From: Nemertoderma westbladi
Lineage: Eukaryota; Animalia; Xenacoelomorpha
Direction of reading: 5' to 3'
Length of the DNA stretch: 64,000 nucleotides
NCBI GenBank assembly: GCA_032718475.1
Contig: JAUCBJ010008300.1
Span: forward strand, 60,541-124,540
The translations under genes were made by a program, and so were the position numbers. The notes below the pieces were generated by a model that saw only the letters and a list, made by a program, of their open reading frames with translations, did no database searches and was not told the origin of the DNA. This document shows positions 15,949-57,200 of the stretch, piece after piece (within the stretch, counting starts at the first letter, position 1; every line of letters starts with the position of its first letter).

Positions 15949-15974
15949 AATCCTCATTCTCACCTCGTTTTCCT

Positions 15975-16877
15975 ATAAAGATATTATAAGCAGTTTATTA
16001 ATATTATATAGGCGTATATACCATGGTAAATAAATTACTGACTTAATTTTTTTTAGTTTAACTACACCTTTAATCAAGGTAATATAGTTTAGAGCACAAT
16101 AATTATGACAATATTACATTACAATATTACAATAATAATAATTACACAATAATTATGAGTTAACTATTATAATTAATAATACACACACAAACCGCCACCA
16201 GAATATTAAATTTAAATTTAAAGGAGCGTAGTGCAAAGTAAAGGTTCCGAGTTTTATTTAGAGGCTAGTTCGGTCAGAGTCGGTGCAGATGGACAGTGCA
16301 AAGCGTGGTAGCGATCACAACAGTTGCCATGGCAATAGAGGCAGATACAGTCTGTTGAAAGTGAGTGGAAAGGCCGGTTTGTTTGGCAAATTTTGTGGTG
16401 AAAACCGTGAGATGTAAATCTTGTTAATACGTGACGATTGCGCTGTTTAGATAGTTTCCAGGTAGAAGAAGCAAAAGCAGGGCCATTTGAGTAATTTTCT
16501 TGGATAAAGTTGAGTTCACGGTTGTGGCGGTAATGATTGTATTGCGTAATAACTTCGGTGTTAAATATCAGAGGTGATTTCGTAATTATGTCTTCGATAA
16601 AAGATTGTTCATCAACGAGATGAAAAGCTAGAGTCGATGAAGCCGTGATATGAAGGCCGAGCAACCGTTTAATGTAAGTTGATTTGATGCGGTCCAGTTC
16701 TTTCAGGTTTGCTAGGGTTAGGAAGCGGGCGAAGACAGGAAGGGCATAGAGAGCCATAGGGGCAATTTTCATTCTGAAAAGTTTTAATCCAGTGTCAACA
16801 GATAAAAGCCTGAGGTTGTTAAGAGAGCCCGTAATACTATACGATTTTTTCTTTTTTGAGGTAATATGTTTCGTATA
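15975..16877 (-). mobile_element. 5'-truncated non-LTR retrotransposon (LINE) 3' fragment nested in the CMC-like element
   Basis: Post-RT coding remnant at 16877-16254, then an AT-rich 3' UTR with a minus-strand AATAAA near 15995. The 3' boundary is approximate. Confidence 0.75.
16254..16877 (-). pseudogene. C-terminal part of a LINE ORF2 (RT thumb/connection region plus Cys/His finger)
   Basis: The frame is open upstream of the listed Met (YTKHITSKKKKSY..LKLFRMKIAPMALYA), matching the HI..K..L..LY..P.L.Y pattern that follows LINE RT. It ends in CICLYC..DRYHALHC. The RT catalytic core is absent. Confidence 0.75.
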
Positions 16878-31100: not shown

Positions 31101-31845
31101 TCCAGCCGCTTTGGCAATACGATGAAACTATAATAAATATTCTAGAACACAACAATATTAACAGGAAGATAGGCTACTTATCTCTCCACTCAGATAGCCA
31201 CAGGTATGGAGGGGTGTTTTGACACAATCAAAATTTAACCATCTCCAGGGGAAAGATGAAGCAAATAACAGCTGATTACTTCTATAAATGTAAGTGTTAC
31301 CTGTTCTTATGACTTTCTTTTAAGATTCTCTATCTCGTGGAGTGGGTTAGAAGATATAAATATGAAAATCGATGTCGTTTTTTGTAAAAAATCTGAGAAA
31401 ATTTTGATAAATTATTGCTGAAAGCCCAAGGATTTTGACATGGCTTTAATACTTCATTATGTTCATGAAATAGCTGAGAAATTTGAGGTGAGTTATTGTA
31501 TTACATATTATCTTCGGCTCCAGCCGCTTTGGCAATACGATGAAACTATAATAAATATTCTAGAACACAACAATATTAACAGGGAGATAGGCTACTTATC
31601 TCTTCACTCTGAGAGCCTCAACAAGGGGGTGTTCCGACGCAATCAAATTTCATCCATCTCCAGGGGAAAGGCGAAGCAAAGAACAGCTGATTACTTTATA
31701 AATGGAAGTGTTACCTGTTCTTTGACTTTCTTTAAGATTCTCTATCTCGTGGAGTGGCTTAGAAGATATAAATATGAAAATCGATGTCGTTTTTTGTAAA
31801 AAATCTGAGGATATTTTGATAAATTATTGCTGAAAGCCCAAGGAT
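25140..31845 (+). repeat. Near-perfect 5-mer higher-order repeat, 2085-bp period, about 3.2 copies
   Basis: Matching spurious ORFs start at 25185, 27270, 29355 and 31440, exactly 2085 bp apart. Confidence 0.95.
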
Positions 31846-37800: not shown

Positions 37801-38946
37801 GATTTTTTACAAAAAACGACATCGATTTTCATATTCATGACTTCTAACCCACTCCAAGAGATAGACAATCTTAAATGAAAGTCAAAAGAGCAGGTAACAC
37901 TTACATTTATAGAAGCAATCAGCTGTTCTTTGCTTCGTCTTTCCCCTGGAGATGGATGAATTTTGATTGCGTCGGAACACCCCCTTTTTGAGGCTCTCAG
38001 AGTGAAGATATAAGTAGCCTATCTCCCTGTTAATATTGTTGTGTTCTAGAATATTTAATATAGTTTCATCGTATTGCAAAAGCGGCTGGAGCCGAAGATA
38101 ATATGTGATACAATAATTCACCTCAAATTTCTCAGCTATTTCATGAATATAATGAGTATTAAAGCCATGTCAAAATCCTTGGTGTTTTTCAGCAATAATT
38201 TATTAAAATCTCCTCTGATTTTTTACAAAAAACGACATCGACTTTCATATTCATGACTTCTAACCCACTCCAAGAGATAGACAATCTTAAATGGAAGTCA
38301 AAAGAGCAGGTAACACTTACATTTATAGAAGTAATCAGCTGTTCTTTGCTTCGTCTTTCCCCTGGAGATGGATGCATTTTGATTGTGTCAGAACACCCCC
38401 TTTTTGAGGCTCTCAGAGTGAAGAGATAAGTAGCATATCTCCCTGTTAATATTGTTGTGTTCTAGAATATTAATTATAGTTTCATAGTGTTGCCAAAGCG
38501 GCTGGAGCCAAAGATAATATGTAATGCAATAATTCACCTCAAATATCTCAGCTAGTTCTTGAATATAATGAGTATTAAATCCTTGTCAAAATCCTTGGTG
38601 TTTTTCAGCAATAATTTATTAAAATCTCCTCTGATTTTTTACAAAAAACGACATCGATTTTCATATTCATGACTTCTAACCCACTCCAAGAGATAGACAA
38701 TCTTAAATGAAAGTCAAAAGAGCAGGTAACACTTACATTTATAGAAGTAATCAGCTGTTCTTTGCTTCGTCTTTCCCCTGGAGATGGATGAATTTGATTG
38801 CGTCGGAACACCCCCTTTTTGAGGCTCTCAGAGTGAAGATATAAGAAGCCTATCTCCCTGTTAATATTGTTGTGTTCTAGAATATTTAATATAGTTTCAT
38901 CGTATTGCCAAAGCGGCTGTAGCCGAAGTTAATATGTGATACAATA
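31842..38946 (-). repeat. ~416-bp satellite array, inverted block, left of the LTR element
   Basis: Reverse complement of the same monomer; the MPKRLEP..-type spurious ORFs switch to the + strand. A local 2076-bp period is visible (36529 vs 38605). Confidence 0.98.
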
Positions 38947-40865
38947 TAAATTGGAGAGATACGCCTATTCCTACTATCGGAAGAGACGGTAACAATACCT
39001 GCAATATCCTACTGTAAAGTTTGTAAATCAAATCATAAATCCGACCTTCTCACCAAAACAGTAAACCCTAAGTAAGCGAATATATTGCAGTATCGATCTC
39101 TTTTAACCGGTGAGGCAGAAAACAGTCTACGAGCAGACAAACTTCGATAAAACAAAATCCCGCGCAGCGAATCCTAAAATCAGGCTGACTCACTGACGGA
39201 CTAAGGGGCTCGTATACTTTGCCGCGGTGTGATTTATATGGTTGGGCAAAGGGACGCTAGCTAGGTATAGAGCAGATTTGGAGATGTCTAACTAGCGAGC
39301 AAAGTGCAGTAAGGACGAAAGTTAATTTTATATATTTTGAGGTGTAAATAATTTCTAACGCGCGTGTGTTAATTCTGAACGGTCAAAGCAGTTTTGCTCC
39401 TTCACATATATAATTACTGGGTACGGTGTGCATTTTACGAATATTCTAATTTTGTAACTTGTAGGTCCAATACTCACGAATGATAAGGTCCCTTCCCCTC
39501 TTGCGTATTTCCAGGACTCAAATTCAGGCATAAGGTTAATACTACGCCCAGAATTCGGCAATTTTAGGTACCAGGTCCCTGATACTAAGAAGAGATGTGT
39601 TAGTTTACTACTGTAGGCGTACGGGTACTAATAGCTATCCTGGCTCCTATCTAGAATTTTAGTCACCCAGGTAGTCCGGGTAACTTCCTATTAGGGCGTT
39701 GGCGGGGACACGGTAGATGTTAGTATATCCCTGATAGCCTCAATTTATTTTGCGCCTAGCGTAAACTGCCCTACCGCCTGAACGGTACAATCCCAATTCA
39801 GGTGAAAACACAGCAACCCCCTAGCCTACAAGTTCTGATGTAATAGACACGGTCGTACTGCAAATAGTCGCACACACACCTGTACTTAGCAAGAGTTAAG
39901 CGTACAGTTTGCTGCACCCTAACCAATGTGTATGCCTTGTACCGGTGTGCCTACGTCCTATCTGCGTACTAGTATCTGCTCTCTCTCCCTCTCCCCCGTA
40001 GGAATATGAAGGTCTACTGCGGTTTTTCCCTGAATCAAGACAGTACAGTCCCTATGATGTAATTTTGGGCTCACAGCGTGTCACTACGTCTACCTTTGAT
40101 CTTTTGGTCTTACACTTAGGTAGCAAGGATCGAACGCTGTCTAACCTTTCAGGCGATGGGCGAATAACACTAGATGGTATTGCGGGTTGTCTCTCGTCTA
40201 CATTCCCGTGATGTTCCCGTTCATTGCTGCGGCCCGATCTCTAGCTGGCCATCTTGTCCCTGAGTTTGTTCACCGTAGTGAAACCATATTAAAACAGATA
40301 GAAAGGCTGAGAGATGTGACTAGTATTTCTGACTTTATTATAAAACATATAATAACTATTATACAATAAACAATGTAATCTGAAATAAGACAGAAAGTGA
40401 ATGATGGAAATTGAGTAGTGATTGATAACTAATGAACGCACCTTTATATACTAAATTTGTGCCGCAATCAATCGAGAAAATTCTCGATTGTTCTATGGGT
40501 TCTAACAAGGTTTTAAAGATAGCTTATTGGTCCAGCTAATACTGTATATAACTTGCACGACATTGGTTACAATCAAATAACTACAGCCTTATTGGTACAG
40601 ACAAATGCAATTAATTTGTAGCGGTTAATTTAAATTAGTTGAAATTCTGCACAAAAAATAATTCGCACTTACTAGGATTCGAACTCGATACCTACTACAC
40701 TTATAATTTCCAACGCTCTACCAACTGAGCTACTGAACCACCTGACCGATAGATGCATAATAGATAGAACCAATACGAATGAGAACTCAAAGCAATCTTT
40801 ACAAAGTTAATTCGAATAAAATAAAATTTTGAAAATCCACGGCATTTAGGGAATATAATTCTATA
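38947..40865 (-). repeat. 3' LTR (1919 bp)
   Basis: Direct repeat of 52361-54279, running TAAATTGGAG..AATTCTATA on the + strand. The right boundary is ambiguous by a few nt. Confidence 0.93.
40653..40739 (-). promoter_or_regulatory. tRNA-derived Pol III cassette (A box, B box, T6) in the 3' LTR
   Basis: The minus strand reads GGTTCAG-TAGCTCAGTTGGTAGAGC..GAGTTCGAATCC..TTTTTT. The D-arm and T-loop are tRNA-like, but the acceptor stem does not pair. Confidence 0.75.
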
Positions 40866-40873
40866 CCGCTCCA
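40866..40873 (-). other. Candidate short, weak polypurine tract
   Basis: Minus-strand TGGAGCGG immediately precedes the 3' LTR. Confidence 0.35.
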
Positions 40874-41039
40874 TGAAAACAGGATATTATCGTGCATAAA
40901 ATATACGGTTTTCACCAATAATCAATCAAACTATAGAATACTTAGGGCGTACTTACATATTTACAATTAAGTTTCAAACAATACTTCCTTTCTACGTAAT
41001 GATTCGATACAAAATAATTACAAATTCAAACTTTACGTA

Positions 41040-41680
41040 TTTAAGGCTTTACTAAGTAAGTACAATATAAATCTAAATTAAATTCACCAATATAAATCTA
41101 TTGCATCTCAGATATTGCATAAATTCAAACAATTACAAATACAAATAAATGAAAACAATAAGAAAGGCTCGCAAGTCTTCCATCTACTATTGTATCTCAA
41201 ATATTGCATAAATTCAAGTAATTACAAATACTTTCGTACCTAAATGTAGATTGCATAAGTTTTGGAATAATTACAAATATGAGTCTTTCTGAGCACAAAT
41301 TTTTCTGTCTATAAAACTTTCTCTTTAGGTACAAATACTACTTATAAAATATAAATTGCATAATATTCGGAACAATACAAATTGCATAAGTTTGGAATAA
41401 TATAAGTTGTATAAGTTCGGAATAATTACAAATATAAAATATAAATTCTTACTAAATATAAATCTTACTAACTATAAGTCTTTACTTAAATATAAATATA
41501 AACTGCATAAGTTTAGAATAATATAAACCTTTGCATCTCAAATATGAAACATAAATCTTTCAAATATAAGTTCCTTCTAAATATAAACTTTCTAAATTTC
41601 ATAAATTCGGAACAATACAAATTGCATAAGTTTTTTAAATATAAAACATATAATTCAAATAAATCACAAATCATAAGAAA
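41040..41680. repeat. Very AT-rich degenerate repeats in the element's 3' untranslated region
   Basis: Repeated ttgcataa(a/g)tt..aattacaaata motifs. Confidence 0.7.
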
Positions 41681-41716
41681 GGCCCACGAGTCTTCCGTCC
41701 ACCCTTGCCCTCCCCT

Positions 41717-43153
41717 TTATCGCTTAGTTGATCGAGCCCTGCCGCGTCCTCGAAAACTGCGCACAGGTGACTTTGCTCGCGATATGGGACTAATGGGGCG
41801 AGTCACTGGTTTACTTGGGACGTTGAGAGACGGTGCAACTATTTCCTCGCAAATTCGTCTGTTTGGCATCCCGAAACCTCGACCAATTCCTCGTGACCGA
41901 TCAGTTGTCGCTACAGTTGGTAGAACGTCTGGGAACGCGTGAGAAGCGGACGACGCAGACCCAAGAGTAGCTTGCGCCCCCTGTTGATCAGCTGGTGTAT
42001 GTCCCGATCCTCCTACTGGTTCTCTTGGAAGTGATACCGTATCCCGAGTAACTCGAATAGTCGGCTCAACTCCCTTGCGTTCTTCTACATTAATAATTTT
42101 CTTCAATTGTTGGCCCACCTTCTGGACCCGTATGATCCTACCCTGCCCGTCCTCCCGAGGGTGACGTGCAGACGGCGCAACCGGAGTGGCTGATATATTC
42201 GTCGCCTCTAGGACCTCTTCTTCCTCGAATACGCTCGCTCGTATACGTTTATGGTAAAACGCGGCTCGGTACGCCCATGCGACGGTTAACCAAGCTCCTT
42301 TGTTCCGCTTTTCAGTTCGGAAACGATCAAATTCACCATACGTGATACGATTTACGACTTTCTGAAAATTCCACGTGTTCTTGTTATCTGGGTGAATCTG
42401 TAACAGATACTCGCGCACCACTCGGAATCCGCTGTCGTGGGGCAAAATATCGACAACCTCGATAAGTTCGTCATATTGAGGCATAGCGGAGATGTATCCT
42501 TCCGACATCATCGTTTGAGGATTCACCGCCCAAAATCCAAGATGCGCTCTCATCGGAAACCGTCTTCTTTGTGCTGATACATGTTCGTCGGCTAAATCTT
42601 CCCACTCATCAAATAACTTCCTCACGAGTTTTACAGATTCGTGTTCATAAGGTATGTCTCTTAGTTGGCATTCAGATGCTCGATGTCCCTTTATATTGCA
42701 GTAAGTACACTGAGCCATAAATCTCCAGCAAGTATAAAAGGTATGAGACCCTTGATCCCCACACCATCCACAGATTAGCTGAGTCGTAGTAATGTGCTTT
42801 CCACTGCACTTTGCCATATGATGTCCAGCGACGCCACATTTACTACACATCGTATTAGCAGGGTACCACACTCGTTCGTATATAAGATCTCCAATCGGTC
42901 GAGCGCTTCCTCCCACACTATAATCGTAATCATCTGGGTCTATGGGTTGGTAGGTTTCTGAAGGTTGTATGCAAACTATAGCATCTGTTGCTTCAAGTTG
43001 TCGAATCTCCGTCTGAGATTTCTTCGGGAGGTTCCTTTCTATCTCAAGAAGTTCCTCTAAAGGATCGTCGGCGATCGTAGTAGTTACGTTGAAATCATCA
43101 CCGAGGTGACCGATAGGCGCGCGCGTCTGCCGTGATTCATCCGTAATCTCCAC
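41717..43153 (-). CDS. Accessory protein with three CCHC zinc knuckles and a basic RG-containing tail (478 aa)
   Basis: Knuckles CSKCGVAGHHMAKC, CGWCGDQGSHTFYTC and CTYCNIKGHRASEC; C-terminus RSFRGRGRARSTKR. The listed start is GTG and the frame is open from ~43204, so the true start is uncertain. Confidence 0.8.
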   Translation of the reverse strand: MEITDESRQTRAPIGHLGDDFNVTTTIADDPLEELLEIERNLPKKSQTEIRQLEATDAIVCIQPSETYQPIDPDDYDYSVGGSARPIGDLIYERVWYPANTMCSKCGVAGHHMAKCSGKHITTTQLICGWCGDQGSHTFYTCWRFMAQCTYCNIKGHRASECQLRDIPYEHESVKLVRKLFDEWEDLADEHVSAQRRRFPMRAHLGFWAVNPQTMMSEGYISAMPQYDELIEVVDILPHDSGFRVVREYLLQIHPDNKNTWNFQKVVNRITYGEFDRFRTEKRNKGAWLTVAWAYRAAFYHKRIRASVFEEEEVLEATNISATPVAPSARHPREDGQGRIIRVQKVGQQLKKIINVEERKGVEPTIRVTRDTVSLPREPVGGSGHTPADQQGAQATLGSASSASHAFPDVLPTVATTDRSRGIGRGFGMPNRRICEEIVAPSLNVPSKPVTRPISPISRAKSPVRSFRGRGRARSTKR

Positions 43154-44139
43154 GATACGTTTTGAGCAAAGTTTATGCTCTCGAAAACTTCCGGTGTCAT
43201 CTCCTTAGCTGAAGTTTGATCGTGTGACGTCCAATGGCAAGGTAGGCTCGCGAGTCTTCCACCCCATTCTTCCATCTCACCTTTCTCGAAAGCCTTGTAG
43301 GCTCTGTATAGGCTAAGAGCTTCTTTCTTTTCGCGGGTTGACTGATTCGCCTCGTCCAGCGTAAGTTCAAATACATCGGGTTCAACAACCTTAGGTGGGT
43401 AAATGACAGTTTCTCCCGCCTTTGGTCCGGTCATAGCAAATGAATGATATGGATTCGATAAAGGATACCCTCCTTCCTGGTAGCGTAGTTGTTGATGATT
43501 CGAACACCTCGCCAATATCGGTTCGGGATTTTCCTTATTCAAACGCATCGGAATCGCATTTCGTTGTTCGCGCATACAAGAACCGCATTGATAATAAAGT
43601 TTATAAACTGAAAATGCTTCCTTGGTTTCTCTATCGTCCCCTCGAGTTCGTCTGTAAAGATGCATTCCATCGAATTCATCGCGTACCGCAGGCATAGGTT
43701 CATGCGCCTTCAGGTATTGCATGGTATGATACAAACGACTAATTTCAGTATCGGGGTCTTCGCTAATGTCTCCCGTGTCACACAAGGCATCGTACGGGTA
43801 AAGTTCGTTGAAGGTTTGGCGCAAACTTTCGATTCTTTCGTTCAATGCGTTTTGCCTTCTCTTTAATACGTTCGAGTCATATTTAGTTCTCGCGAGTTTC
43901 GCTGTACTTTCCGATAATTCTTTTATACCAAATATAGTGTAATCCTTGGCTCCAAATCTTTCGAATGGCGCTGCTGCCTCCTCTTGGATATCATATCCCC
44001 ATCTCGGCTCTCCTTGTATCCCTTTCTCCATAATTAGGGGTGTAGTTACATAATCATTACTACTAGAGGGAATACAACAGAGTTTGTGGTTAGTTGTGAG
44101 GAGACGTGAGAGTTTCGTCTGCCTTTTGGGCTTCGACAA
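43084..44139 (-). CDS. Accessory ORF of unknown function (351 aa; first ATG at 44031)
   Basis: Long open frame with protein-like composition, a coiled-coil-like segment and a CGSC..CSNH possible metal site. It overlaps the next ORF. Confidence 0.65.
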   Translation of the reverse strand: MSKPKRQTKLSRLLTTNHKLCCIPSSSNDYVTTPLIMEKGIQGEPRWGYDIQEEAAAPFERFGAKDYTIFGIKELSESTAKLARTKYDSNVLKRRQNALNERIESLRQTFNELYPYDALCDTGDISEDPDTEISRLYHTMQYLKAHEPMPAVRDEFDGMHLYRRTRGDDRETKEAFSVYKLYYQCGSCMREQRNAIPMRLNKENPEPILARCSNHQQLRYQEGGYPLSNPYHSFAMTGPKAGETVIYPPKVVEPDVFELTLDEANQSTREKKEALSLYRAYKAFEKGEMEEWGGRLASLPCHWTSHDQTSAKEMTPEVFESINFAQNVSWRLRMNHGRRARLSVTSVMIST

Positions 44140-44690
44140 CGCTCTAACCTCCTACCCATAGCCTAAGATCTAAGGTTTCTTTAATGACACGCTGCTTCTT
44201 ATCTAAAATATTTTGCCGAAGTAAAACGAATTTGGGCTAAACTGGCCGTGAGTCTAAAATACTCACTTTTTGATCCCAAACTATTATCAGAAAATAAGCA
44301 GTCAAGAATTAGTAATAAATATAGGGGAGTCTATTTTGTCGTAACTTATTGAAACAAGACCGTGTAAAATTTAATTAAAATTTTAAGAAAGGCTCGCAAG
44401 TCTTCCTCTCTTGTTTCTCTAATTTTAAGTTCCACCCGACTGTACCCTGAAATCTATTCACTGGAGAAAATTTTAAAAATTTTTCAAATCCAAATGGATT
44501 GTCTAAAATTTCGAAAATGTCTCAATATTGTGAGTTCCAAGTAGAATTCCATTTCTTATACCTACAAATCCCGCTCCTATGTGACACATAAGGGTACTAC
44601 CCTCAATGTTCACATATAAAGACAATGGAATTCTACCGCTGTCCTTACTACGGTGTACAGGTACGTGGAAATCTATTTGTAAACTCCTAA

Positions 44691-47600
44691 TTATTTACTA
44701 GTATTAGGTGGAGATTTGTAGTCTCCAGACTCGTTACGAGTCTCTTCAAGAAGTACGAGACGTTGAGTCGGTCTGTCTACTGTGCGACCGTCAATTGTCC
44801 GTACCGTCACAGTTCTTGTCACTCCATCCATAGATGGATGTGTGGCTAAAATGACACCTGTTATCCAGAAGCGTCTTTTCAGATTCACTTCTGCCAACAG
44901 CACGTGATCTCCCGGCTTTAATGCGCGGGTGTTATTGTACCAGTTTGTTCTGGCAGAAATAGAGGGCAAATAATGGTTTTGCCATATTTCCCAGAATTTG
45001 TTAGCCAGTAGTTGCGTGATTTTCCACGCTTTTTTCCCGTAACTATCGCTTTCCATTGGAATGGAAATCGGCGTTAATGTCGTCGGTGCCTGCATAAGCA
45101 GGTGTGCCGGTGTTAAAGCAAACTGGGATTGTTTGTCATCGGGTACTAATACTATTGGTCTAGTATTTAGTATTGCCTCGATTTCAACAAAAAATGTTGT
45201 CAGTTGGTCGTCTGTTAATATGTGGTTTACTGGAATGACCTTTGCCATTGCTGTCTTTATAGATCTAATCAGTCTCTCCCAGACTCCGCCTCTCCAAGGA
45301 CTATCTGGAGGATTAAACTTCCAAACAATCTTGTGAGGTTGCAGTTCGTTCGAGATTTGATCATGATCTAATCTCTTAAAGGCTCTAGCAATCTCATTCC
45401 GAGCACCAACAAAGTTTGTCCCTTGGTCTGAGTACAAGCATTTTACTAGTCCGCGTCTAGCGATAAATCGCCGCAGTGCTAGTATAAACGCGTTGGTGGA
45501 AAGATCCATCACACGTTCAATGTGAACTGCCCTACTGGACATACATGTGAAAATCAGTCCCCAGCGTTTTACTAGTATACGTCCACGTTTAGTATGTATG
45601 GGACCAAAGCAATCAATTCCAGTCTCTGTAAAAGGTGGTCTGAATGCTTGAAGTCGTGCTTGTGGTAGTTCACTCATTTCTTGGGTACCTATTCTAGAAT
45701 GTACCTTTTTACAAATAATACACGTACGTGTCACTGAACTTAACGCTTTACTGGGTCTAATTAATACAAATCTAGTACGTAAGTAGGAAAGACAGTGGTG
45801 TCTTCCAGCGTGTTTCAGATGTAAATGTGCGTCCAGTATCATTGCACGTTGTAGTTCGTGATGTTGCGGTATTATTATTGGGTACCTAAAGTTCGTGTTA
45901 AAGTCAATGTTTTGAAGCCGAGATTTATGACAAATTAAGCCATTATAAATAATCGGACTCCAACTCAGTATCGGTGACGACTTGATTGGTTGACCTTGAT
46001 TTATAGATGTGAATTCGCGCGCGAAATATCGCAGTTGGTAATGGCGAATTAATTTAATCTCACACCTGTCAATCTCAGCCAATGTAAGTCGACGTGTAAA
46101 GTCACGTTTGCCTTTAACGTATTGTACAAAACGTACAATCCACGCTAATTTTCGGCAAGCGTTTGACCAAGAGTCTGTTAAGTTTACAATACGGTCGACA
46201 TAAGTATTTGTGACGTCATCAGGTAAGTCAATTGGGAATTTGGAAGGTTTTAAATTACTAGAAGGGCCCACGGGTCCGCCGGCAAGTATTCCCTTGTTGA
46301 CTGTTGATCCGTCCGGGTCTACAAGTAATTTGTCCTTCTTTGTCTTCTTACCTTGATTGTCAGTACTTTGTAAGTCGATCGTTAATGGTGGTTTGAACTC
46401 TATGGGATCAGTGGGTTTCGCTAAACTTATTTTTCTGCCGACATTAATCCCAGGTCTCGCCATAGGTTGCAGGTTCGGTATGTCTCTTGAGCGCAAAGTA
46501 ACACCTGTATTTACATTAGCGTAGGTACTACCCACATCTGTAATACATGAGGTTTCACCGTGCTTATGGTTGCTCAAGTGTGTCAAAATTGGTAGTTTGT
46601 CAATACAAGGCCGCTCCAATAGGGAAACTGCGGCTTTATTGTTAGTCAATACATTACTAGTGTCTAGTCGACTGTCTAGTAGTGTGTCTGGCGATACGTC
46701 TGGTAACGTATCTGGTTGTTTGTCAATAGAAGGCCGCTCCAATAGGGAAACTGCGGCTTTACTGTTTGTCAGTGCGTTACTAACGTCTGGTGGAACATTT
46801 TGTGACATGTCTGTCAAAACGTCTGGTTGACCGTCTAGTAACGTGTCTGGTTGACCGTCTGGCGATATGTCTGGTGTAGAAAGGCTCGCAAGTCTTCCTC
46901 TCTTGACCTTTGAAGTTATATCCTTCCATTTCGCCTTCGGTTTTTTCTTGAGTTTTGCCGCCGTTGTCTTTTTCTTTGTCTCGACGGGCACTGTTGAGGT
47001 TGTTGGGGTAGGTAGACTCGCAAGCCTATCATCTGTCGTCGATGGAGTCTCTAGCTGACTCGTCTTCTCCCCAAGTTCTAAACTCCGCTGGTGGGTTAGC
47101 TGCTCCTTGTGACTTATCATACTAGTTACACGTCTGTGATGTTTTGTCGACTGTAGCGTAGTATGGTTCACGTCGTGTGAAAAGGAATGAATTGAGTTTG
47201 TAGTCAATAAACTACATGTACTCTGTACGTCGTCTTCCTCGTCACTTACGTCTAGTGTGCGCACAGGCGCTCGAGTATACCACCCTATCGGCGTTCTGCA
47301 GGCGTATGCGTTTCCTGCTACAACTGCCGATGGTCTGGTTTCCCACACCTGGTGTAGGTTGAATTGGTCCGTCCCGATCAGCATTGCTACCGATCTATAA
47401 TTGACAGGACATTCGGGTACACCAAGGTGTCTGAAATACTTACGGTCCTCCAGAGATTGTTCCGGCACTGGACCTAGTAGGTTACTAAAGTCCTTCGTGG
47501 CCGCAAAGGTTAGATCTCTAAAGGGCAACAAAGACCTCTCCCTCTCGCTGTGTTGCGATTTTGGAAGAAGAGAGTCTAAGTCCAACTTAACTCGTGTCAC

Positions 47601-50600
47601 TGGTATTGCACGCTGGCCGTGCATACTACTTACTGTATAACTTACGTGCTTACCTTGTCTAAGATCTGTTACGACGTCAGCTATCTTTTCATCTACGTAA
47701 CTGTGAGATGAGGCTGAGTCTAGAATCGCGTAAATCCTCTTACTCCCTTTTGTGCCAGTAACTTTAATTGGGATTACACTGAATCCCTTCAGTTGGTCAG
47801 TGGTCAGGAGCGCGATTGACGGTTGTTCGTCTCCATTTGAATATTCGTCGTCTTCTGATTCTTCGTCCGACGATCCGGATTGTTCTGAAAAGCAATCCTC
47901 TATATGGGTCACGAAAGTCGGAGTCGTTTTCGATTCCCGTTTTCGGTAAGCCGCATCACATCTCGCTGCTGCTTCCGGGTGTTCCCTGGCGAAGCGTTTC
48001 GTCGGCGTGTGGCTGTCTGTGTGGAGCAGACCGTCGTGGTTGCGTCCACAGGATGGACAAGTGTCGGTATTTGGGCAATCCTTACGGACGTGTCCGTGTC
48101 GCGTACACCGCCAACAAGAGTCCAGTGGCCGTATCTGCAGCCGTCGTTCTTCTGAGTTCAACTCGCGAAATTGTCGACAACCTCGTAACTTGTGACCAAT
48201 ATACCGCTTACCTAAATGTTCGCAGTATTGGCAGCCGTTGAAGTCGGTGCTGAGTTGCTGTCTCGTCTGTTTCGTCCCAATGGGCGCAGATACTCTATTA
48301 CCGTCTGAGAATTGTCGTGATTCCGTCGGTGTGGCGTAAGTGGCCGTCTTTGTGGATGTTGTCTGGGGTTTTTGTCGGTTAGAGGATGGCAGTGTGATCC
48401 CTTCTGCCACGATGTGCTGGTCGGTATAGTTAGATCGAGTTTCTACTACCGCCTCCCTGGATATTAAAAGGTACACATCTTCTAATTTTAGGAATCCTCC
48501 TCGCTCCTCTCGCTGGTATTCGACCTTCCTCCACTCCCGACGAAGTCGATGGTGGAGTCGTCCTATTATCTTTAATAGGACTGTAGGGGTATTTCCGTAA
48601 TCAAGTTGTCCAATTGATCTTAAGGTAGTGATAGCGTTCTTAATCTCGTCAGCCAGTTTTAGTAAGTCGACGGGTTTAGTGATAGCCCCTCCCTTACAGA
48701 GTTCTTCTATTACTGACCTGGCCATACTCACTGTACCTCCGTATATCGAAGTCAAACGATCGTACGCTAGTTCGAAAGCGTCTGGTACACCGACGAAAGT
48801 CTCCGCCAAACGTTTAGGTTCTCCTGACAACGTTTGGAGCAAGTAATTGAACTTCTCTCGTGATGTAAAGGCGCACACGGCGATCTGGGATTCAATATAG
48901 TCTACGAAGGTATGCCAGTGTTTTGAGCTACCGGAGAACTTCGGTGGTTGTTGTACCGGCAATCCCTGTCTGGCTGCGAATTTCGCTATCTCCTCGGCAA
49001 CGTTCAGAGTTTCGCGTCCTTGGTTGGTAGTCTGGTTGATGTTCTCCCTTCTAGGCGCTTTTCCCTGATACGATGTGGGGTTTGAAGGTACCGGTCTTTG
49101 TGGTCCCTTCGGGTGTCTATTGTGTTCGAATTCGGAATTTCTCGAACTGTCGGTGTAACCTTCCTCCAGACGTTCCTCAATCCGGGCCAACTTGTTGACA
49201 ATGTCGGCGAACTGTTGCGCACCGATCGCGCCCGCTGGTGGTAACGCCTTCTGTGTCGGTGTATTCTGTGGAGGATTATCTGCAAAGGAGTTGTCTGAAC
49301 GCTCGCGTTTATATTCATCGGCCGCCCCTGTTCTAAATACCTCGCGTTTCGGGTAATCCGATTCGCTCGAAGTACTACTATCATCTGGATATGGTGGTCG
49401 ACGTGCTCGCGTTCGTTGCGTCGTACGAGTTCTAACGGCTCGTTTCGGAACATCGTCCACTGATCTCCGTTGTTCGGTAGGCTCACAAGTCTTCCTCGAA
49501 GTCGTAGATTGCGATGTAAACTGGTTGAACGGTCGCGTCTCCACTGTTCTCCGTTGTTCGGTAGGCTCACAAGTCTTCCTCGAAGTCGTAGATTGCGATG
49601 TAAACTGGTTGAACGGTCGCGTCTCCACTGTTCTCCGTTGTTCGGTAGGCTCACAAGTCTTCCTCGAAGTCGTAGATTGCGATGTAAACTGAACCGGTGG
49701 GCGAATGACAGCATTTGAGACAACTGGCCTTGTAGGTCGAAACGTCATTGGGTAAGCGTAATGTGTAACGGGTTTAGGTGTCAAAGGTGGACTCACCTGT
49801 TTTGTCGTCAGTAGCGCAGGTCCGGTCAATAAACTACTACGATCCGTAATCGGTGGGTTACTTACCTTGACTTTCGGAATGGGCGACGACGTTGCTCTTG
49901 GCGGTGTAAACTCGTCCGGAATAACAAACCTGTGGTCCGTCGCACCATGGATAGGAGAAATGTTACTACTACCCGCAATCGAAACAGGTTCCTTAGTCGT
50001 AACCGGTGCAAACATATGAGTTACTTGTGGGAATCGTTGACACACGTCTTTTACTAATTGTCGTTCCCGTCCGGGTGCTCCTACGCTTCCTTCCTTCTTC
50101 CGTTCCTGAATTTGGCGATGTCTTACCTCTAACTGGTCCAAATCATGTCCGTCGCGAGATCTCATCGATCGATCGCGGGCTAGAAGATCCAGATTTTCCT
50201 TAGTTTCGGCTAATTCTCTCGCCCTCTTCTCAAGTTCGAAACGAAGTTTAACTTCCTTTTCTCGTTGTTCCGTTTGTTGTTGTTGCGCCTCGAACTCTGC
50301 TTGTCGTATCGCTTGTTGGGCTTTTATTTGCCGTGTCTTCATCTCGACTCTGGCTTCCGAAACTACTCTTTGTCGCTCTAACTCTGCCGCAGCCGTTTGT
50401 CGCTCTAACTCTGCCGCAGCCGTTTGTCGCTCTAACTCAGCCGCTGCAGCTGCCGCTGCCGTTTGTCGCTCTAACTCGGCCGCTGCCGCTGCCGTTTGTC
50501 GCTCTAACTCGGCTGTTGCCGTTCGTTGCGCTAACTCGGCCGTTGCCGCTTGTTGGGCAATGTCCAACTCTAACCTTTCCATTTCGGCCGCTTCGAGTTC

Positions 50601-51557
50601 GGCTTGTTCCTGCAGATGAGAGATTCTCGCTACATTCGCAACACGTATTTTCTCTTCCTCTACTGCTGTTTGTATCATTAGAAGTTGAGCTTGTTCTTCT
50701 ATCTCGTGTTGCTGTCTGTAGAACTGCTGCTGTTGTCGAGCAACTTCTGACGTGACTATACTTCCTTCGCAGATTTCGCTACGAATACTTACCAATGATT
50801 GATTTAGTATTCCCGGTGCCGATTCGATTTGTGCGAATGAAGTTTCCCTCGTGTATTCCGGCACGGTTTCCAAATCGCCGACGTCTTCGCCGCACATGCG
50901 TAAGTGGTCCGTCAGATGTTTCAATTGTCCATCCAGTCGGTACAATTCCTGTTCTTCCTCGGGTTGTAATAATTCGTCCGAAACTGACTCACCTAACAAC
51001 TGGTCCGCTTGTTCCTGTTGTATCTGTCTAATCGTCGACTTAAACTGAATCAGTTTCTCTCTAGTGATCATTAGTTTCTCGAGGATTCTAAGTTGAGTAT
51101 CCATGTCCTGTCTCTGTCTAGCTAGATCTTGTAGGCCAACTAGATTATCTACGGACTTATATACTTTACTCTGTACTCTAACCTGGAGGGTGTAGAACTC
51201 GAATCGAGACATCGGAGCGGTCAACCCGTCTAATATGCGTTGGCCTTCTCCAATACTCCTGGTTATATGCGCCATGTATCCACCGACGCTTCTAACCACA
51301 CTTTCTGTGCTTCCTGCTGAACTTACCAATTCCGTTTCCCTATATCTAGGTTGCGGAACAGTTAGAAAGTCCTCGGTCCTGCCGTCGCCTCGTACTACGG
51401 CATCCGGTACTCCCGTTGGATGTACTGGTGACGCACACGGTGTAGGTTCGGTAGGCTCGCGAGTCTTCCCCTGTGGTTCTTCCGCCGCTGACTTATCCGC
51501 GTCACATGAGTCATAGTCGGTTTGTGTATTCTTCGTATAGTCTTGTTTGTCACTCAT
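44691..51557 (-). CDS. BEL/Pao Gag-protease-integrase polyprotein without RT or RNase H (2288 aa)
   Basis: In order: coiled-coil N-terminus; DUF1759-like Gag (PPKFSGSSKHWHTF..LSGEPKRL); three BEL-type Cys/His knuckles (CQYC..H..C, CWRCTRHGHVRKDC, CPSCGRNHDGLLH); aspartic protease AILDSASSHSYV; integrase HHCC (HLHLKH..CIIC); DDE core (GIDCFGP, SDQGTNF, GGVWERLI); DUF5641-like tail (NKFWEIWQNHYL). No YxDD motif seen between protease and integrase. Confidence 0.95.
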   Translation of the reverse strand: MSDKQDYTKNTQTDYDSCDADKSAAEEPQGKTREPTEPTPCASPVHPTGVPDAVVRGDGRTEDFLTVPQPRYRETELVSSAGSTESVVRSVGGYMAHITRSIGEGQRILDGLTAPMSRFEFYTLQVRVQSKVYKSVDNLVGLQDLARQRQDMDTQLRILEKLMITREKLIQFKSTIRQIQQEQADQLLGESVSDELLQPEEEQELYRLDGQLKHLTDHLRMCGEDVGDLETVPEYTRETSFAQIESAPGILNQSLVSIRSEICEGSIVTSEVARQQQQFYRQQHEIEEQAQLLMIQTAVEEEKIRVANVARISHLQEQAELEAAEMERLELDIAQQAATAELAQRTATAELERQTAAAAAELERQTAAAAAAAELERQTAAAELERQTAAAELERQRVVSEARVEMKTRQIKAQQAIRQAEFEAQQQQTEQREKEVKLRFELEKRARELAETKENLDLLARDRSMRSRDGHDLDQLEVRHRQIQERKKEGSVGAPGRERQLVKDVCQRFPQVTHMFAPVTTKEPVSIAGSSNISPIHGATDHRFVIPDEFTPPRATSSPIPKVKVSNPPITDRSSLLTGPALLTTKQVSPPLTPKPVTHYAYPMTFRPTRPVVSNAVIRPPVQFTSQSTTSRKTCEPTEQRRTVETRPFNQFTSQSTTSRKTCEPTEQRRTVETRPFNQFTSQSTTSRKTCEPTEQRRSVDDVPKRAVRTRTTQRTRARRPPYPDDSSTSSESDYPKREVFRTGAADEYKRERSDNSFADNPPQNTPTQKALPPAGAIGAQQFADIVNKLARIEERLEEGYTDSSRNSEFEHNRHPKGPQRPVPSNPTSYQGKAPRRENINQTTNQGRETLNVAEEIAKFAARQGLPVQQPPKFSGSSKHWHTFVDYIESQIAVCAFTSREKFNYLLQTLSGEPKRLAETFVGVPDAFELAYDRLTSIYGGTVSMARSVIEELCKGGAITKPVDLLKLADEIKNAITTLRSIGQLDYGNTPTVLLKIIGRLHHRLRREWRKVEYQREERGGFLKLEDVYLLISREAVVETRSNYTDQHIVAEGITLPSSNRQKPQTTSTKTATYATPTESRQFSDGNRVSAPIGTKQTRQQLSTDFNGCQYCEHLGKRYIGHKLRGCRQFRELNSEERRLQIRPLDSCWRCTRHGHVRKDCPNTDTCPSCGRNHDGLLHTDSHTPTKRFAREHPEAAARCDAAYRKRESKTTPTFVTHIEDCFSEQSGSSDEESEDDEYSNGDEQPSIALLTTDQLKGFSVIPIKVTGTKGSKRIYAILDSASSHSYVDEKIADVVTDLRQGKHVSYTVSSMHGQRAIPVTRVKLDLDSLLPKSQHSERERSLLPFRDLTFAATKDFSNLLGPVPEQSLEDRKYFRHLGVPECPVNYRSVAMLIGTDQFNLHQVWETRPSAVVAGNAYACRTPIGWYTRAPVRTLDVSDEEDDVQSTCSLLTTNSIHSFSHDVNHTTLQSTKHHRRVTSMISHKEQLTHQRSLELGEKTSQLETPSTTDDRLASLPTPTTSTVPVETKKKTTAAKLKKKPKAKWKDITSKVKRGRLASLSTPDISPDGQPDTLLDGQPDVLTDMSQNVPPDVSNALTNSKAAVSLLERPSIDKQPDTLPDVSPDTLLDSRLDTSNVLTNNKAAVSLLERPCIDKLPILTHLSNHKHGETSCITDVGSTYANVNTGVTLRSRDIPNLQPMARPGINVGRKISLAKPTDPIEFKPPLTIDLQSTDNQGKKTKKDKLLVDPDGSTVNKGILAGGPVGPSSNLKPSKFPIDLPDDVTNTYVDRIVNLTDSWSNACRKLAWIVRFVQYVKGKRDFTRRLTLAEIDRCEIKLIRHYQLRYFAREFTSINQGQPIKSSPILSWSPIIYNGLICHKSRLQNIDFNTNFRYPIIIPQHHELQRAMILDAHLHLKHAGRHHCLSYLRTRFVLIRPSKALSSVTRTCIICKKVHSRIGTQEMSELPQARLQAFRPPFTETGIDCFGPIHTKRGRILVKRWGLIFTCMSSRAVHIERVMDLSTNAFILALRRFIARRGLVKCLYSDQGTNFVGARNEIARAFKRLDHDQISNELQPHKIVWKFNPPDSPWRGGVWERLIRSIKTAMAKVIPVNHILTDDQLTTFFVEIEAILNTRPIVLVPDDKQSQFALTPAHLLMQAPTTLTPISIPMESDSYGKKAWKITQLLANKFWEIWQNHYLPSISARTNWYNNTRALKPGDHVLLAEVNLKRRFWITGVILATHPSMDGVTRTVTVRTIDGRTVDRPTQRLVLLEETRNESGDYKSPPNTSK
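49460..49692 (-). repeat. In-frame 84-bp tandem repeat x3 within gag
   Basis: QFTSQSTTSRKTCEPTEQRR is repeated three times. Confidence 0.95.
50368..50550 (-). repeat. In-frame 27-36-bp tandem repeat (AAAELERQT) within the gag coiled coil
   Basis: The motif tttgtcgctctaactc recurs about 6 times. Confidence 0.92.
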
Positions 51558-51641
51558 TTCGGTAGTTGTAAGTCAAGTGAAGTGAGTGTAAAAGTATCGA
51601 GTTTACCGTATTTGTATAAAACGGTACTAATTACAGTCATA

Positions 51642-51763
51642 TAAAATTAGCCTACCGGCCGATTTTATAGCAGATGGATAAAATTAGCCTAAACGGCCAA
51701 TTTTACAGCAAATAAATGTCACGGAATAAGTATATAATAAAATTAGCCTAGCGGCCAATTTTA
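51642..51763 (-). other. Three tandem stem-loops in the 5' leader
   Basis: Copies at 51642-51667, 51679-51705 and 51738-51763. The minus strand reads UAAAAUUGGCC-loop-GGCUAAUUUUA. Confidence 0.75.
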
Positions 51764-52349
51764 CAACAAATAAATCGGATAACGATATGCGTTATCAAAA
51801 GGTAAATTAAATACAATAATACGGACTAATTCAGCAATGAACAAAGAAATCATACGGAATGCATAAATACTTGAGACAGTGGAACCCACAATAATTTTAA
51901 CTAATACGGTAATGCCTAACTTATTTATGCAACTTTTCGAACTCACCCACTCCAATAATTCTCCAGAAAAACAGATTCCCAGATACAAACCGAACGTGAA
52001 CCTTTCCGTTTTTAACGTTGCGGACGAAACGCGATTTTCCCAACCAAAGTTGTTGGGTTATCTATCTCCCAAACTTGCTAAACACGGTCTTGCTCCCGTT
52101 ACAGTCTAGAAATGAGTTCTGAATCCTGAAAAACAAAAGAGTTAGGTTTTACTTTACGAAATTTTGTACCGGTACAATATGGTATTTAAACCCTTTTAAA
52201 CACCGGTATTCAATTCCAAAATATTTTACACGCGGTTCAAATCAAATTTTATTTCAAAAAATTAGCACTTAGCTAATCAAATATAAATTTTTACCTCAAA
52301 ATACAAAATTTTCAAATAACTTTAGTCCTACCGAACCGTAGAAGTAAAA

Positions 52350-52360
52350 CATATTCCTAC
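52350..52360 (-). other. Non-tRNA primer-binding-site candidate GTAGGAATATG
   Basis: It abuts the 5' LTR, lacks the TGG start of a tRNA PBS, and is the exact complement of LTR 53412-53422 on the same RNA strand. Confidence 0.7.
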
Positions 52361-54279
52361 TAAATTGGAGAGATACGCCTATTCCTACTATCGGAAGAGA
52401 CGGTAACAATACCTGCAATATCCTACTGTAAAGTTTGTAAATCAAATCATAAATCCGACCTTCTCACCAAAACAGTAAACCCTAAGTAAGCGAATATATT
52501 GCAGTATCGATCTCTTTTAACCGGTGAGGCAGAAAACAGTCTACGAGCAGACAAACTTCGATAAAACAAAATCCCGCGCAGCGAATCCTAAAATCAGGCT
52601 GACTCACTGACGGACTAAGGGGCTCGTATACTTTGCCGCGGTGTGATTTATATGGTTGGGCAAAGGGACGCTAGCTAGGTATAGAGCAGATTTGGAGATG
52701 TCTAACTAGCGAGCAAAGTGCAGTAAGGACGAAAGTTAATTTTATATATTTTGAGGTGTAAATAATTTCTAACGCGCGTGTGTTAATTCTGAACGGTCAA
52801 AGCAGTTTTGCTCCTTCACATATATAATTACTGGGTACGGTGTGCATTTTACGAATATTCTAATTTTGTAACTTGTAGGTCCAATACTCACGAATGATAA
52901 GGTCCCTTCCCCTCTTGCGTATTTCCAGGACTCAAATTCAGGCATAAGGTTAATACTACGCCCAGAATTCGGCAATTTTAGGTACCAGGTCCCTGATACT
53001 AAGAAGAGATGTGTTAGTTTACTACTGTAGGCGTACGGGTACTAATAGCTATCCTGGCTCCTATCTAGAATTTTAGTCACCCAGGTAGTCCGGGTAACTT
53101 CCTATTAGGGCGTTGGCGGGGACACGGTAGATGTTAGTATATCCCTGATAGCCTCAATTTATTTTGCGCCTAGCGTAAACTGCCCTACCGCCTGAACGGT
53201 ACAATCCCAATTCAGGTGAAAACACAGCAACCCCCTAGCCTACAAGTTCTGATGTAATAGACACGGTCGTACTGCAAATAGTCGCACACACACCTGTACT
53301 TAGCAAGAGTTAAGCGTACAGTTTGCTGCACCCTAACCAATGTGTATGCCTTGTACCGGTGTGCCTACGTCCTATCTGCGTACTAGTATCTGCTCTCTCT
53401 CCCTCTCCCCCGTAGGAATATGAAGGTCTACTGCGGTTTTTCCCTGAATCAAGACAGTACAGTCCCTATGATGTAATTTTGGGCTCACAGCGTGTCACTA
53501 CGTCTACCTTTGATCTTTTGGTCTTACACTTAGGTAGCAAGGATCGAACGCTGTCTAACCTTTCAGGCGATGGGCGAATAACACTAGATGGTATTGCGGG
53601 TTGTCTCTCGTCTACATTCCCGTGATGTTCCCGTTCATTGCTGCGGCCCGATCTCTAGCTGGCCATCTTGTCCCTGAGTTTGTTCACCGTAGTGAAACCA
53701 TATTAAAACAGATAGAAAGGCTGAGAGATGTGACTAGTATTTCTGACTTTATTATAAAACATATAATAACTATTATACAATAAACAATGTAATCTGAAAT
53801 AAGACAGAAAGTGAATGATGGAAATTGAGTAGTGATTGATAACTAATGAACGAATCGCACCTTTATATACTAAATTTGTGCCGCAATCAATCGAGAAAAT
53901 TCTCGATTGTTCTATGGGTTCTAACAAGGTTTTAAAGATAGCTTATTGGTCCAGCTAATATATAACTTGCACGACATTGGTTACAATCAAATAACTACAG
54001 CCTTATTGGTACAGACAAATGCAATTAATTTGTAGCGGTTAATTTAAATGAGTTGAAATTCTGCACAAAAAATAATTCGCACTTACTAGGATTCGAACTC
54101 GATACCTACTACACTTATAATTTCCAACGCTCTACCAACTGAGCTACTGAACCACCTGACCGATAGATGCATAATAGATAGAACCAATACGAATGAGAAC
54201 TCAAAGCAATCTTTACAAAGTTAATTCGAATAAAATAAAATTTTGAAAATCCACGGCATTTAGGGAATATAATTCTATA
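52361..54279 (-). repeat. 5' LTR (1919 bp)
   Basis: Direct repeat of 38947-40865, upstream of gag on the minus strand. Confidence 0.93.
54067..54153 (-). promoter_or_regulatory. tRNA-derived Pol III cassette in the 5' LTR
   Basis: Same A box, B box and T6 as 40653-40739. Confidence 0.75.
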
Positions 54280-57200
54280 CAATAATTCACCTCAAATTTC
54301 TCAGCTATTTCATGAATATAATGAGTATTAAAGCCATGTCAAAATCCTTGGGCTTTCAGCAATAATTTATCAAAATATTCTCAGATTTTTTACAAAAAAC
54401 GACATCGATTTTCATATTTATAACTTCTAACCCACTCCACGAGATAGAGAATCTTAAACGAAAGTCATAAGAACAGGTAACACTTACATTTATAGAAGTA
54501 ATCAGCTGTAATTTGCTTCGTCTTTCCCCAGGAGATGGATGAATTTTGATTGCGTCGGAACACCCCCTTTCTGAGGCTCTCAGAGTGAAGATATAAGTAG
54601 CCTATCTCCCTGTTAATATTATTGTGTTCTAGAATATTTAATATAGTTTCGTCGCATTGCCAAAGCGGCTGGAGCCGAACTTAATATGTGATACAATAAT
54701 TCACCTCAAATTTCTCAGCTATTTCATGAATATAATGAGTATTAAAGCCATGTCAAAATCCTTGGTGTTTTTCAGCAATAATTTATTAAAATCTCCTCTG
54801 ATTTTTTACAAAAAACGACATCGATTTTCATATTCATGACTTCTAACCCACTCCAAGATATAGTCAATCTTAAATGGAAGTCAAAAGAGCAGGTAACACT
54901 TACATTTATAGAAGTAATCAGCTGTTCTTGACTTCGTCTTTCCCCTGGAGATGGATGCATTTTGATTGTGTCAGAACACCCCCTTTTTGAGGCTCTCAGA
55001 GTGAAGAGATAAGTAGCATATCTCCCTGTTAATATTGTTGTGTTCTAGAATATTAATTATAGTTTCATCGTGTTGCCAAAGCGGCTGGAGCCAAAGATAA
55101 TATGTAATGCAATAATTTACCTCAAATATCTCAGCTAGTTCATGAATATAATGAGTATTAAATCCTTGTCATAATCCTTGGTGTTTTTCAGCAATAATTT
55201 ATTAAAATCTCCTCTGATTTTTTACAAAAAACGACATCGATTTTCATATTCATGACTTCTAACCCACTCCAAGAGATAGACAATCTTAAATGAAAGTCAA
55301 AAGAGCAGGTAACACTTACATTTATAGAAGCAATCAGCTGTTCTTTGCTTCGTCTTTCCCCTGGAGATGGATGAATTTTGATTGCGTCGGAACACCCCCT
55401 TTTTGAGGCTCTCAGAGTGAAGATATAAGTAGCCTATCTCCCTGTTAATATTGTTGTGTTCTAGAATATTTAATATAGTTTCATCGTATTGCAAAAGTGG
55501 CTGGAGCCGAACTTAATATGTGATACAATAATTCACCTCAAATTTCTCAGCTATTTCATGAATATAATGAGTATTAAAGCCATGTCAAAATCCTTGGTGT
55601 TTTTCAACAATAATTTATTAAAATCTCCTCTGATTTTTTACAAAAAACGACATCGATTTTCATATTCATGACTTCTAACCCACTCCAAGAGATAGACAAT
55701 CTTAAATGGAAGTCAAAAGAGCAGGTAACACTTACATTTATAGAAGTAATCAGCTGTTCTTGACTTCGTCTTTCCCCTGGAGATGGATGCATTTTGATTG
55801 TGTCAGAACACCCCCTTTTTGAGGCTCTCAGAGTGAAGAGATAAGTAGCATATCTCCCTGTTAATATTGTTGTGTTCTAGAATATTAATTATAGTTTCAT
55901 CGTGTTGCCAAAGCGGCTGGAGCCAAAGATAATATGTAATGCATTAATTTACCTCAAATATCTCAGCTAGTTCATGAATATAATGAGTATTAAATCCTTG
56001 TCAAAATCCTTGGTGTTTTTGAGCAATAATTTATTAAAATCTCCTCTGATTTTTTACAAAAAACGACATCGATTTTCATATTCATGACTTCTAACCCACT
56101 CCAAGAGATAGACAATTTTAAATGAAAGTCAAAAGAGCAGGTAACACTTATATTTATAGAAGTAATCAGCTGTTCTTTGCTTCGTCTTTCCCCTGGAGAT
56201 GGATGAATTTGATTGCGTCGGAACACCCCCTTTTTGAGGCTCTCAGAGTGAAGATATAAGTAGCCTATCTCCCTGTTAATATTGTTGTGTTCTAGAATAT
56301 GTATTATAGTTCATCGTATTGCCAAAGCGGCTGGAGCCGAACTTAATATGTGATACAATAATTAACCTCAAATTTCTCAGCTATTTCATGAATATAATGA
56401 GTATTAAAGCCATGTCAAAATCCTTGGTGTTTTTCAGCAATAATTTATTAAAATCTCCTCTGATTTTTTACAAAAAACGACATCGACTTTCATATTCATG
56501 ACTTCTAACCCACTCCAAGAGATAGAGAATCTTAAATGGAAGTCAAAAGAGCAGGTAACACTTACATTTATAGAAGTAATCAGCTGTTCTTTGCTTCGTC
56601 TTTCCCCTGGAGATGGATGCATTTTGATTGTGTCAGAACACCCCCTTTTTGAGGCTCTCAGAGTGAAGAGATAAGTAGCATATCTCCCTGTTAATATTGT
56701 TGTGTTCTAGAATATTAATTATAGTTTCATCGTGTTGCCAAAGCGGCTGGAGCCAAAGATAATATGTAATGCAATAATTCACCTCAAATATCTCAGCTAG
56801 TTCTTGAATATAATGAGTATTAAATCCTTGTCAAAATCCTTGGTGTTTTTCAGCAATAATTTATTAAAATCTCCTCTGATTTTTTACAAAAAACGACATC
56901 GATTTTCATATTCATGACTTCTAACCCACTCCAAGAGATAGACAATCTTAAATGAAAGTCAAAAGAGCAGGTAACACTTACATTTATAGAAGTAATCAGC
57001 TGTTCTTTGCTTCGTCTTTCCCCTGGAGATGGATGAATTTGATTGCGTCGGAACACCCCCTTTTTGAGGCTCTCAGAGTGAAGATATAAGAAGCCTATCT
57101 CCCTGTTAATATTGTTGTGTTCTAGAATATTTAATATAGTTTCATCGTATTGCCAAAGCGGCTGTAGCCGAAGTTAATATGTGATACAATAATTCACCTC

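Follow-up and report, generated by a model that had tools for sequence, protein, structure and literature searches.

Candidate self-priming in a non-autonomous BEL/Pao retroelement of Nemertoderma westbladi: a primer-binding site complementary to its own LTR

We analysed a stretch of 64,000 nucleotides from Nemertoderma westbladi (GenBank assembly GCA_032718475.1, contig JAUCBJ010008300.1, positions 60,541 to 124,540), hereafter the window. This 64-kb window is mainly a 416-bp satellite array, in which a retroelement lies on the minus strand, running from 54279 to 38947. Its overall structure is as follows.

38947..54279, minus strand: BEL/Pao LTR retrotransposon, non-autonomous, 15,333 bp, within the 416-bp satellite array
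52361..54279, minus strand: 5' LTR, 1,919 bp, with TA...TA ends rather than TG...CA
38947..40865, minus strand: 3' LTR
54280..54284, minus strand: target-site duplication TATTG, 5 bp, with its second copy at 38942-38946
40866..40872, minus strand: short purine tract GGAGCGG preceding the 3' LTR, resembling the GGGGCCGG and GGAGCCA tracts of relatives
44691..51572, minus strand: open frame of 2,293 aa with Gag (DUF1759, Cys-His boxes), protease, about 360 aa unrelated to reverse transcriptase (RT) or RNase H, integrase and DUF5641
41717..44151, minus strand: two overlapping extra frames downstream of the integrase, of 355 aa and 495 aa, the second with weak zinc knuckles

The LTRs are 99.4% identical, with one substitution and two 5-nt indels between them, and the element looks like a recent insertion. 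The LTR end at 52361 is set by the 3' LTR and the TATTG duplication, and is also marked by three contigs of run X3 that diverge there into dissimilar flanks (agreement 0.59). TG...CA are the usual LTR ends in BEL/Pao and are seen in the relatives; the element itself has paired LTRs and a 5-bp duplication, but TA...TA ends. Elsewhere in the window, the satellite array changes orientation at 31841/31842, and positions 1-2004, some 2 kb of non-satellite sequence with CCAAT and TATA motifs, are unrelated to the element's LTR. Two further insertions carry terminal inverted repeats: one at 12032-13583, with short repeats between TTAA sites, which we take to be piggyBac-like by motif, and one at 14542-17846, with a minisatellite and a 207-aa frame that has no Pfam match.

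The long frame has Pfam matches to DUF1759 (6e-11), DUF5641 (1.7e-20) and Integrase_H2C2, and 574 protein homologues at 1e-20, DUF5641 being carried by the matches listed. Its domain order is colinear with that of relative P0010, and Gag, protease and integrase are of BEL/Pao type, following the order PR-(RT-RH)-IN. These three domains are open, with about 360 low-complexity residues standing in frame in place of RT and RNase H; neither enzyme was found in the window, where tblastn with three autonomous relatives matched only Gag-PR and IN, an absence that the first-pass annotation had overlooked. Judged by its sequence, the element is a non-autonomous BEL/Pao derivative with an integrase of its own, and since neither RT nor RNase H is encoded, both must be supplied in trans. 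As to the extra frames, no homologue was found for the 495-aa product (Atlas hits <0.9), and the 355-aa frame was scanned against Pfam only. The integrase is 36-43% identical to those of BEL/Pao elements of fish, echinoderms, amphioxus and corals, and sits on a long, unplaceable branch of about 2 changes per site (quick tree). No close protein relative was found among 1.84 billion representatives (best integrase identity 43%), no autonomous partner in the protein searches (with the same best identity) and no relative among viral contigs. The element's proteins show no chromodomain match and are not those of Ty3/gypsy chromoviruses, and the element is not a member of the Tf1/sushi group.

The junction between the 5' LTR and the internal region carries the features on which the priming question turns.

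52350..52360, minus strand: candidate primer-binding site (PBS) GTAGGAATATG, at offset 0 from the LTR, with a family variant at 52352
53412..53422, minus strand: candidate self-primer CATATTCCTAC, with a family variant at 53420, the partner of 52352
39998..40008, minus strand: copy of the candidate primer in the 3' LTR
52380..52426, minus strand: two PBS-like repeats within U5, GTAGGAATA at 52388 and GTAGGATATTG at 52426, the latter after TTTACA
54071..54155, minus strand: degenerate tRNA-like A-box/B-box segment in U3, followed by a T run (by eye)

The first-pass annotation had proposed that this PBS pairs with the element's own LTR instead of a tRNA, and the observations on which it built hold. 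On the minus strand, 52360-52350 reads GTAGGAATATG directly against the LTR end at 52361, without a TGG, and its exact 11-bp complement CATATTCCTAC lies at 53422-53412 and 40008-39998 and at no other minus-strand site in the window. The pairing extends neither way, T53423 standing opposite T52349 and G53411 opposite A52361, and a minus-strand AATAAA begins at 53163, about 260 nt downstream of the start of the 11-mer, as had been noted. Two accessory claims fared less well: the initiator-like context at the LTR 11-mer is present but holds little information, and the additional pairing of GGAGAG..AGATAC with the U5 end could form (-17.7 kcal/mol, p 0.026, 500 shuffles) but is not conserved, with 0 of 12 relatives at p<0.15. 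A match of at least 11 nt at offset 0 arises in 16 of 20,000 dinucleotide shuffles of the LTR, and at offsets 0-3 in 53 of 20,000; the LTR contains a complement to 10 of 11,484 internal 11-mers. The 11-nt match is thus strong for a single element, and not decisive given the scan of many windows. An inner tRNA PBS at the TGG near 53702 was ruled out by eye, as this TGG opens a TACG hairpin, and a splice-built primer in this element's LTR reaches 9 nt against 11 contiguous. Cer7 reportedly encodes a tRNA-like primer of its own; here, the U3 segment at 54071..54155, which we take to be tRNA-like from its A-box/B-box motifs, has no PBS complement and no ARAGORN or Rfam match, and was rejected as such a primer. 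Within U5, 52426-52350 holds three successive words resembling an LTR end plus PBS, the first after a canonical ACA, and the U5 end may, on this pattern, have shifted outwards twice.

Variation within the family bears on whether the pairing is maintained. Five runs, sampled as contigs only, contain 31-67% of the family's sampled words; run X5, possibly RNA, has no coverage at either the primer or the PBS. The third base of the 11-mer varies (53420 A>G, plus strand) at 94% of depth in run X3, 11% in X4 and 10% in X1; the partner change, 52352 T>C (plus strand), was predicted from it before being looked for, and was then found. It is the sole letter change inside the PBS at a threshold of 5% in any run, with a share of 19.6 of 63.2 depth in X3 (31%), 123 of 9,021 in X1 (1.4%) and 0 in X4. 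Together, the two changes turn a U-A into a C-G pair. The variants are unphased, 1,070 nt apart and unequal in share, the PBS variant being carried by one contig per run with patchy contig depths, and the 53420 variant is not listed again at the stricter likeness of 90. That the family keeps its pairing when letters change is supported by this one unphased compensatory pair. Further downstream, a one-base deletion variant at 53162 leaves the AATAAA hexamer intact. Another X3 contig shows 90 differences in 701 nt (52532-53233), and on the plus strand X3 has T>C at 107 places and A>G at 5, which in the element's sense orientation is A-to-G; by this substitution pattern, the contig is an ADAR-like hypermutated copy. 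The X3 contig with the PBS variant has two other letters in 69 nt and is therefore not that copy. In the U3 part (54279-53820), X3 depth is 20-40 times that of the remaining LTR, one X3 contig lacks 53558-52125 and a second seems to connect 51947 with about 44060, which would reflect either deletion derivatives or a family sharing the promoter only.

These data also speak to the notion that the pairing is a relic, left by a lineage that once self-primed, this RT-less family having since ceased to prime and spreading instead by recombination within the satellite. The lack of RT and RNase H in the window, the non-canonical TA ends, the location in a tandem array and the absence of an autonomous partner from the protein searches, with a best integrase identity of 43%, are what it would lead one to expect. 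It sits poorly with a single insertion bounded by a 5-bp duplication, with LTRs so little diverged, with an open 2,293-aa frame that includes integrase, and with several flanks at the LTR end; together with these points, the A-to-G hypermutated copy bespeaks recent passage through RNA. We judge a relic quite improbable.

Beyond the family, we collected 95 relative loci with integrase identity of 34-43%. As the element's integrase lies on a long, unplaceable branch, these are analogues at that identity and not sister families. Seventeen loci were inspected and four excluded, their contigs ending inside a repeat; in 13, two LTR copies set the LTR end and the next bases. All three loci with a TGG site have an own-LTR complement of only 4-5 nt, and they group together, along with two unlabelled rows, in one small clade (support 99, quick tree). 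Among the non-TGG loci with a known LTR end, 8 of 10 have a complement of 10-12 nt, 0-5 nt from the LTR end: contiguous in L003, L029 and L083, and found only across a predicted GT-AG intron with pyrimidine tract in L046, L059, L064, L079 and L086. When PBS and LTR were swapped among 14 elements, the window's included, none of 182 pairs reached 10 nt. In ten further loci only the LTR start is known, and every ACA within 1,200 nt was taken as a candidate LTR end; 9 of the 10 reach 10-14 nt. A null of 40 shuffles per locus, run on all of them but L049, attained the observed value 0 times for six loci, 3 times for L047, 4 times for L070 and 18 times for L005. A narrower first pass had overlooked L051, L060 and L081, and four loci without a clear LTR start were excluded. 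Three loci stay below the strict test (L024, 9 nt; L002, 7 nt; L005, 8 nt); L005:1209-1650 gives 11 nt if a weaker acceptor is allowed, and L002:1-140 about 10 nt across a junction if the LTR ends at a later ACA (by eye). Since L047 and L049 belong to the L046 family, the passing loci make 15 distinct families, in 10 of which the match depends on a predicted GT-AG splice. The paired words differ across all 15, and the paired PBS starts with GT in 10 of them, as in the window's element; a poly(A) hexamer A[AT]TAAA lies downstream of the primer in 9 of 12 relatives and in the window's element. The co-variation test suggested in the first-pass annotation thus finds the pairing retained with different letters in 15 distant families. 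One TGG-site element, L088:5422-11401, a BEL/Pao element with both LTRs and a 5-bp target duplication, stands in a record titled Wolbachia chromosome, likely host contamination or a nuclear Wolbachia insert; 15 further matches fall in bacterial bins.

We accordingly give very little credence to the view that the 11-bp match arose by chance and was selected from many windows. In its favour are odds per element between roughly 1 in 400 and 1 in 1,250 and the very many windows scanned; a coincidence would not explain a variant pair on matching partners, nor the same geometry in 15 unrelated families against 0 of 182 swapped controls.

Where the primer would lie within the transcript is a separate matter, for which the following features are relevant.

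53841..54009, minus strand: promoter-like cluster and rival start site, with CCAAT at 54009, 53980 and 53949, TATA at 53869 and TTAGTT at 53846 (motif matches only)
53748..53753, minus strand: AATAAA upstream of the primer, whose use in the 3' LTR would be incompatible with self-priming
53158..53163, minus strand: AATAAA, 248 nt past the 3' end of the primer, the poly(A) signal that would be required for self-priming
53409..53465, minus strand: 5' arm of a predicted imperfect hairpin of about 50 bp burying the 11-mer (0 of 100 shuffles as stable)
53194..53246, minus strand: 3' arm of the same hairpin

The clearest promoter motifs lie about 420 nt upstream of the 11-mer. The predicted probability of the PBS/11-mer duplex is near 1 for transcripts starting at 53422, 53421 or 53450, 0.28 from 53500 and 0 from 53600 or further upstream, where the 11-mer is held in a hairpin. 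A start within about 30 nt of the 11-mer is thus favoured by folding, folds of kilobase RNAs being weak evidence; they would imply either such a start, with the hairpin masking the 3'-LTR copy, or a longer transcript that refolds. A primer-hiding hairpin is as stable in 0 of 100 shuffles of L083, as in the window's element; it was rejected as a general feature, being absent in L003 and L029 and matched by 5-6 of 100 shuffles in L070 and L081. The first exon of the spliced relatives supplies only 3-7 nt of the primer, and L029 has its primer 122 nt 3' of a TATA box, so that there the primer is probably internal. If the predicted introns are taken at face value, in the splice-dependent families the primer is internal to the transcript, and a transcript-start primer cannot hold. 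In L029 itself, one repeat carries an acceptor at the junction, while its counterpart shows the joined form; the repeats are 88% identical and may be different copies. For the window's element, we consider a primer downstream of the cap, as it must be in the spliced relatives, somewhat the likelier arrangement, and a primer formed by the transcript's first nucleotides somewhat the less likely. Given the internal primer of the relatives, a distant transcript start would not refute self-priming.

The same promoter region suggests another explanation, in which the pairing is structural, serving packaging, dimerisation or a leader-closing translation switch, while an outside RNA such as a tRNA fragment primes a transcript that starts at a TATA-directed site near 53840 and possibly uses the first AATAAA. 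Three CCAAT boxes, TATA and TTAGTT followed by AATAAA at 53753 resemble an ordinary U3-R, and these motifs near 53840, with an AATAAA of their own, keep an outside primer in play; long transcripts, moreover, are predicted to fold with the 11-mer away from the PBS, and Belpaoviridae are tRNA-primed according to ICTV (PMC8742986). A structural role, on the other hand, does not account for a pairing that starts 0-5 nt from the LTR end, the very place at which DNA synthesis has to begin, or for TGG relatives that lack it, and one conserved outside primer would not allow a paired sequence that varies by family. We hold this explanation to be unlikely.

Taken together, we consider it likely that this BEL/Pao element self-primes by RNA fold-back, the LTR 11-mer taking the place of a tRNA. 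The compensatory variant pair and the pairing in independent families support the core of what the first-pass annotation had advanced, whose U5 extension is not conserved. In Tf1, the PBS is paired by the first 11 bases, and cleavage by RNase H falls between bases 11 and 12 (available text of PMC7175516 and PMC4600332); the element probably works as a self-primer of this type. Its RNA would fold back so that the 11-mer pairs with the PBS and primes reverse transcription; by analogy with Tf1, the RT/RNase H of an autonomous relative would cut just 3' of C53412, and the freed 3'-OH would prime a strong-stop DNA of about 1,050 nt, from 52361 to 53411. With such a cut and such a product, the RNA must end beyond 53411; the strong-stop DNA would, on the same analogy, transfer to an RNA 3' end polyadenylated after the AATAAA at 53163. 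Plus-strand synthesis would then copy the primer back into the PBS, and the two would thereby stay in step. More speculatively, a U3-dependent hairpin could hide the 3'-LTR copy of the primer, a role that intron retention could have in the relatives.

With Belpaoviridae (Semotivirus) the element shares DUF1759 Gag, Cys-His boxes, protease, integrase, DUF5641 and a 5-bp target duplication. In the ICTV description, the PBS is 18 nt long and serves tRNA-Arg or tRNA-Gly, the LTRs measure 0.2-1.2 kb and the genomes 4.2-10 kb (PMC8742986); the element, in contrast, has no TGG after the LTR and no such tRNA site, 1.9-kb TA-ended LTRs, a length of 15.3 kb, no RT or RNase H and extra 3' frames. Tf1 and Tf2 of Schizosaccharomyces pombe and the Tf1/sushi group, including Tj1 and Tcn1, are described as likewise lacking a tRNA site and having an 11-nt, LTR-adjoining PBS complementary to their own LTR RNA. 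Yet Tf1 is a Ty3/gypsy element whose primer is its first 11 bases, whereas the window's element is BEL/Pao, would form a loop of about 1,050 nt and lacks an RT/RNase H of its own; and, unlike in Tf1, the primer spans a predicted splice junction in 10 of the 15 related families. In the plant Ty1/copia TAR lineage (Houba, Osr-1), self-priming is predicted on the same evidence, complementarity of at least 10 nt at 0-5 nt from the LTR, a published screen within which the 11/11 match at offset 0 falls; that lineage is copia, from plants, and the available text describes no compensatory or splice-built primer there (PMC6317226). The fungal GalEa copia elements, with their Conserved Hairpin Site, also have a complementary pair in place of a PBS; their site is palindromic and, in the text available, its authors found no complementary U5 repeat, whereas the window's element has its partner in the LTR (PMC5445492).

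BEL/Pao elements are regarded as tRNA-primed, their replication being poorly understood (PMC8742986), and self-priming as described for Ty3/gypsy and predicted for plant copia (available text of PMC6317226). In the accessible portions of the literature searched (including PMC2864245, PMC6238403, PMC8220671, PMC554778, PMC3118150, PMC9094657 and PMC12471100), self-priming is described only for Tf1/sushi, Tcn1 and the copia TAR lineage, and the main texts of the Sinbad paper and of a BEL/Pao survey, as available, mention neither PBS nor tRNA. The first-pass annotation's impression that self-priming is undescribed for BEL/Pao thus agrees with this literature, subscription journals, Repbase and GyDB being outside its scope; within the same bounds, a transcript-internal, often splice-built primer is a mechanism that we did not find in print.

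What this element adds is a compensatory variant predicted and then found, an RT-less family, and a hairpin that may replace an intron. We tentatively propose, as a generalisation rather less likely to hold than not, that much of BEL/Pao in aquatic animals swapped tRNA priming for a transcript-internal self-primer, active only at the 5' end through splicing in most families and through escape from a U3-dependent hairpin in this one, with the RT-less family priming by borrowed enzymes. Self-priming in BEL/Pao could account for the failure of tRNA-based annotation to find a PBS in such elements, and would presumably let them escape control through tRNA fragments, while a splice-built primer would tie retrotransposition to host splicing. 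Overall, it would place self-priming in all three LTR-retrotransposon superfamilies and would bear on whether self- or tRNA-priming came first, a question raised in the available text of PMC3601003.
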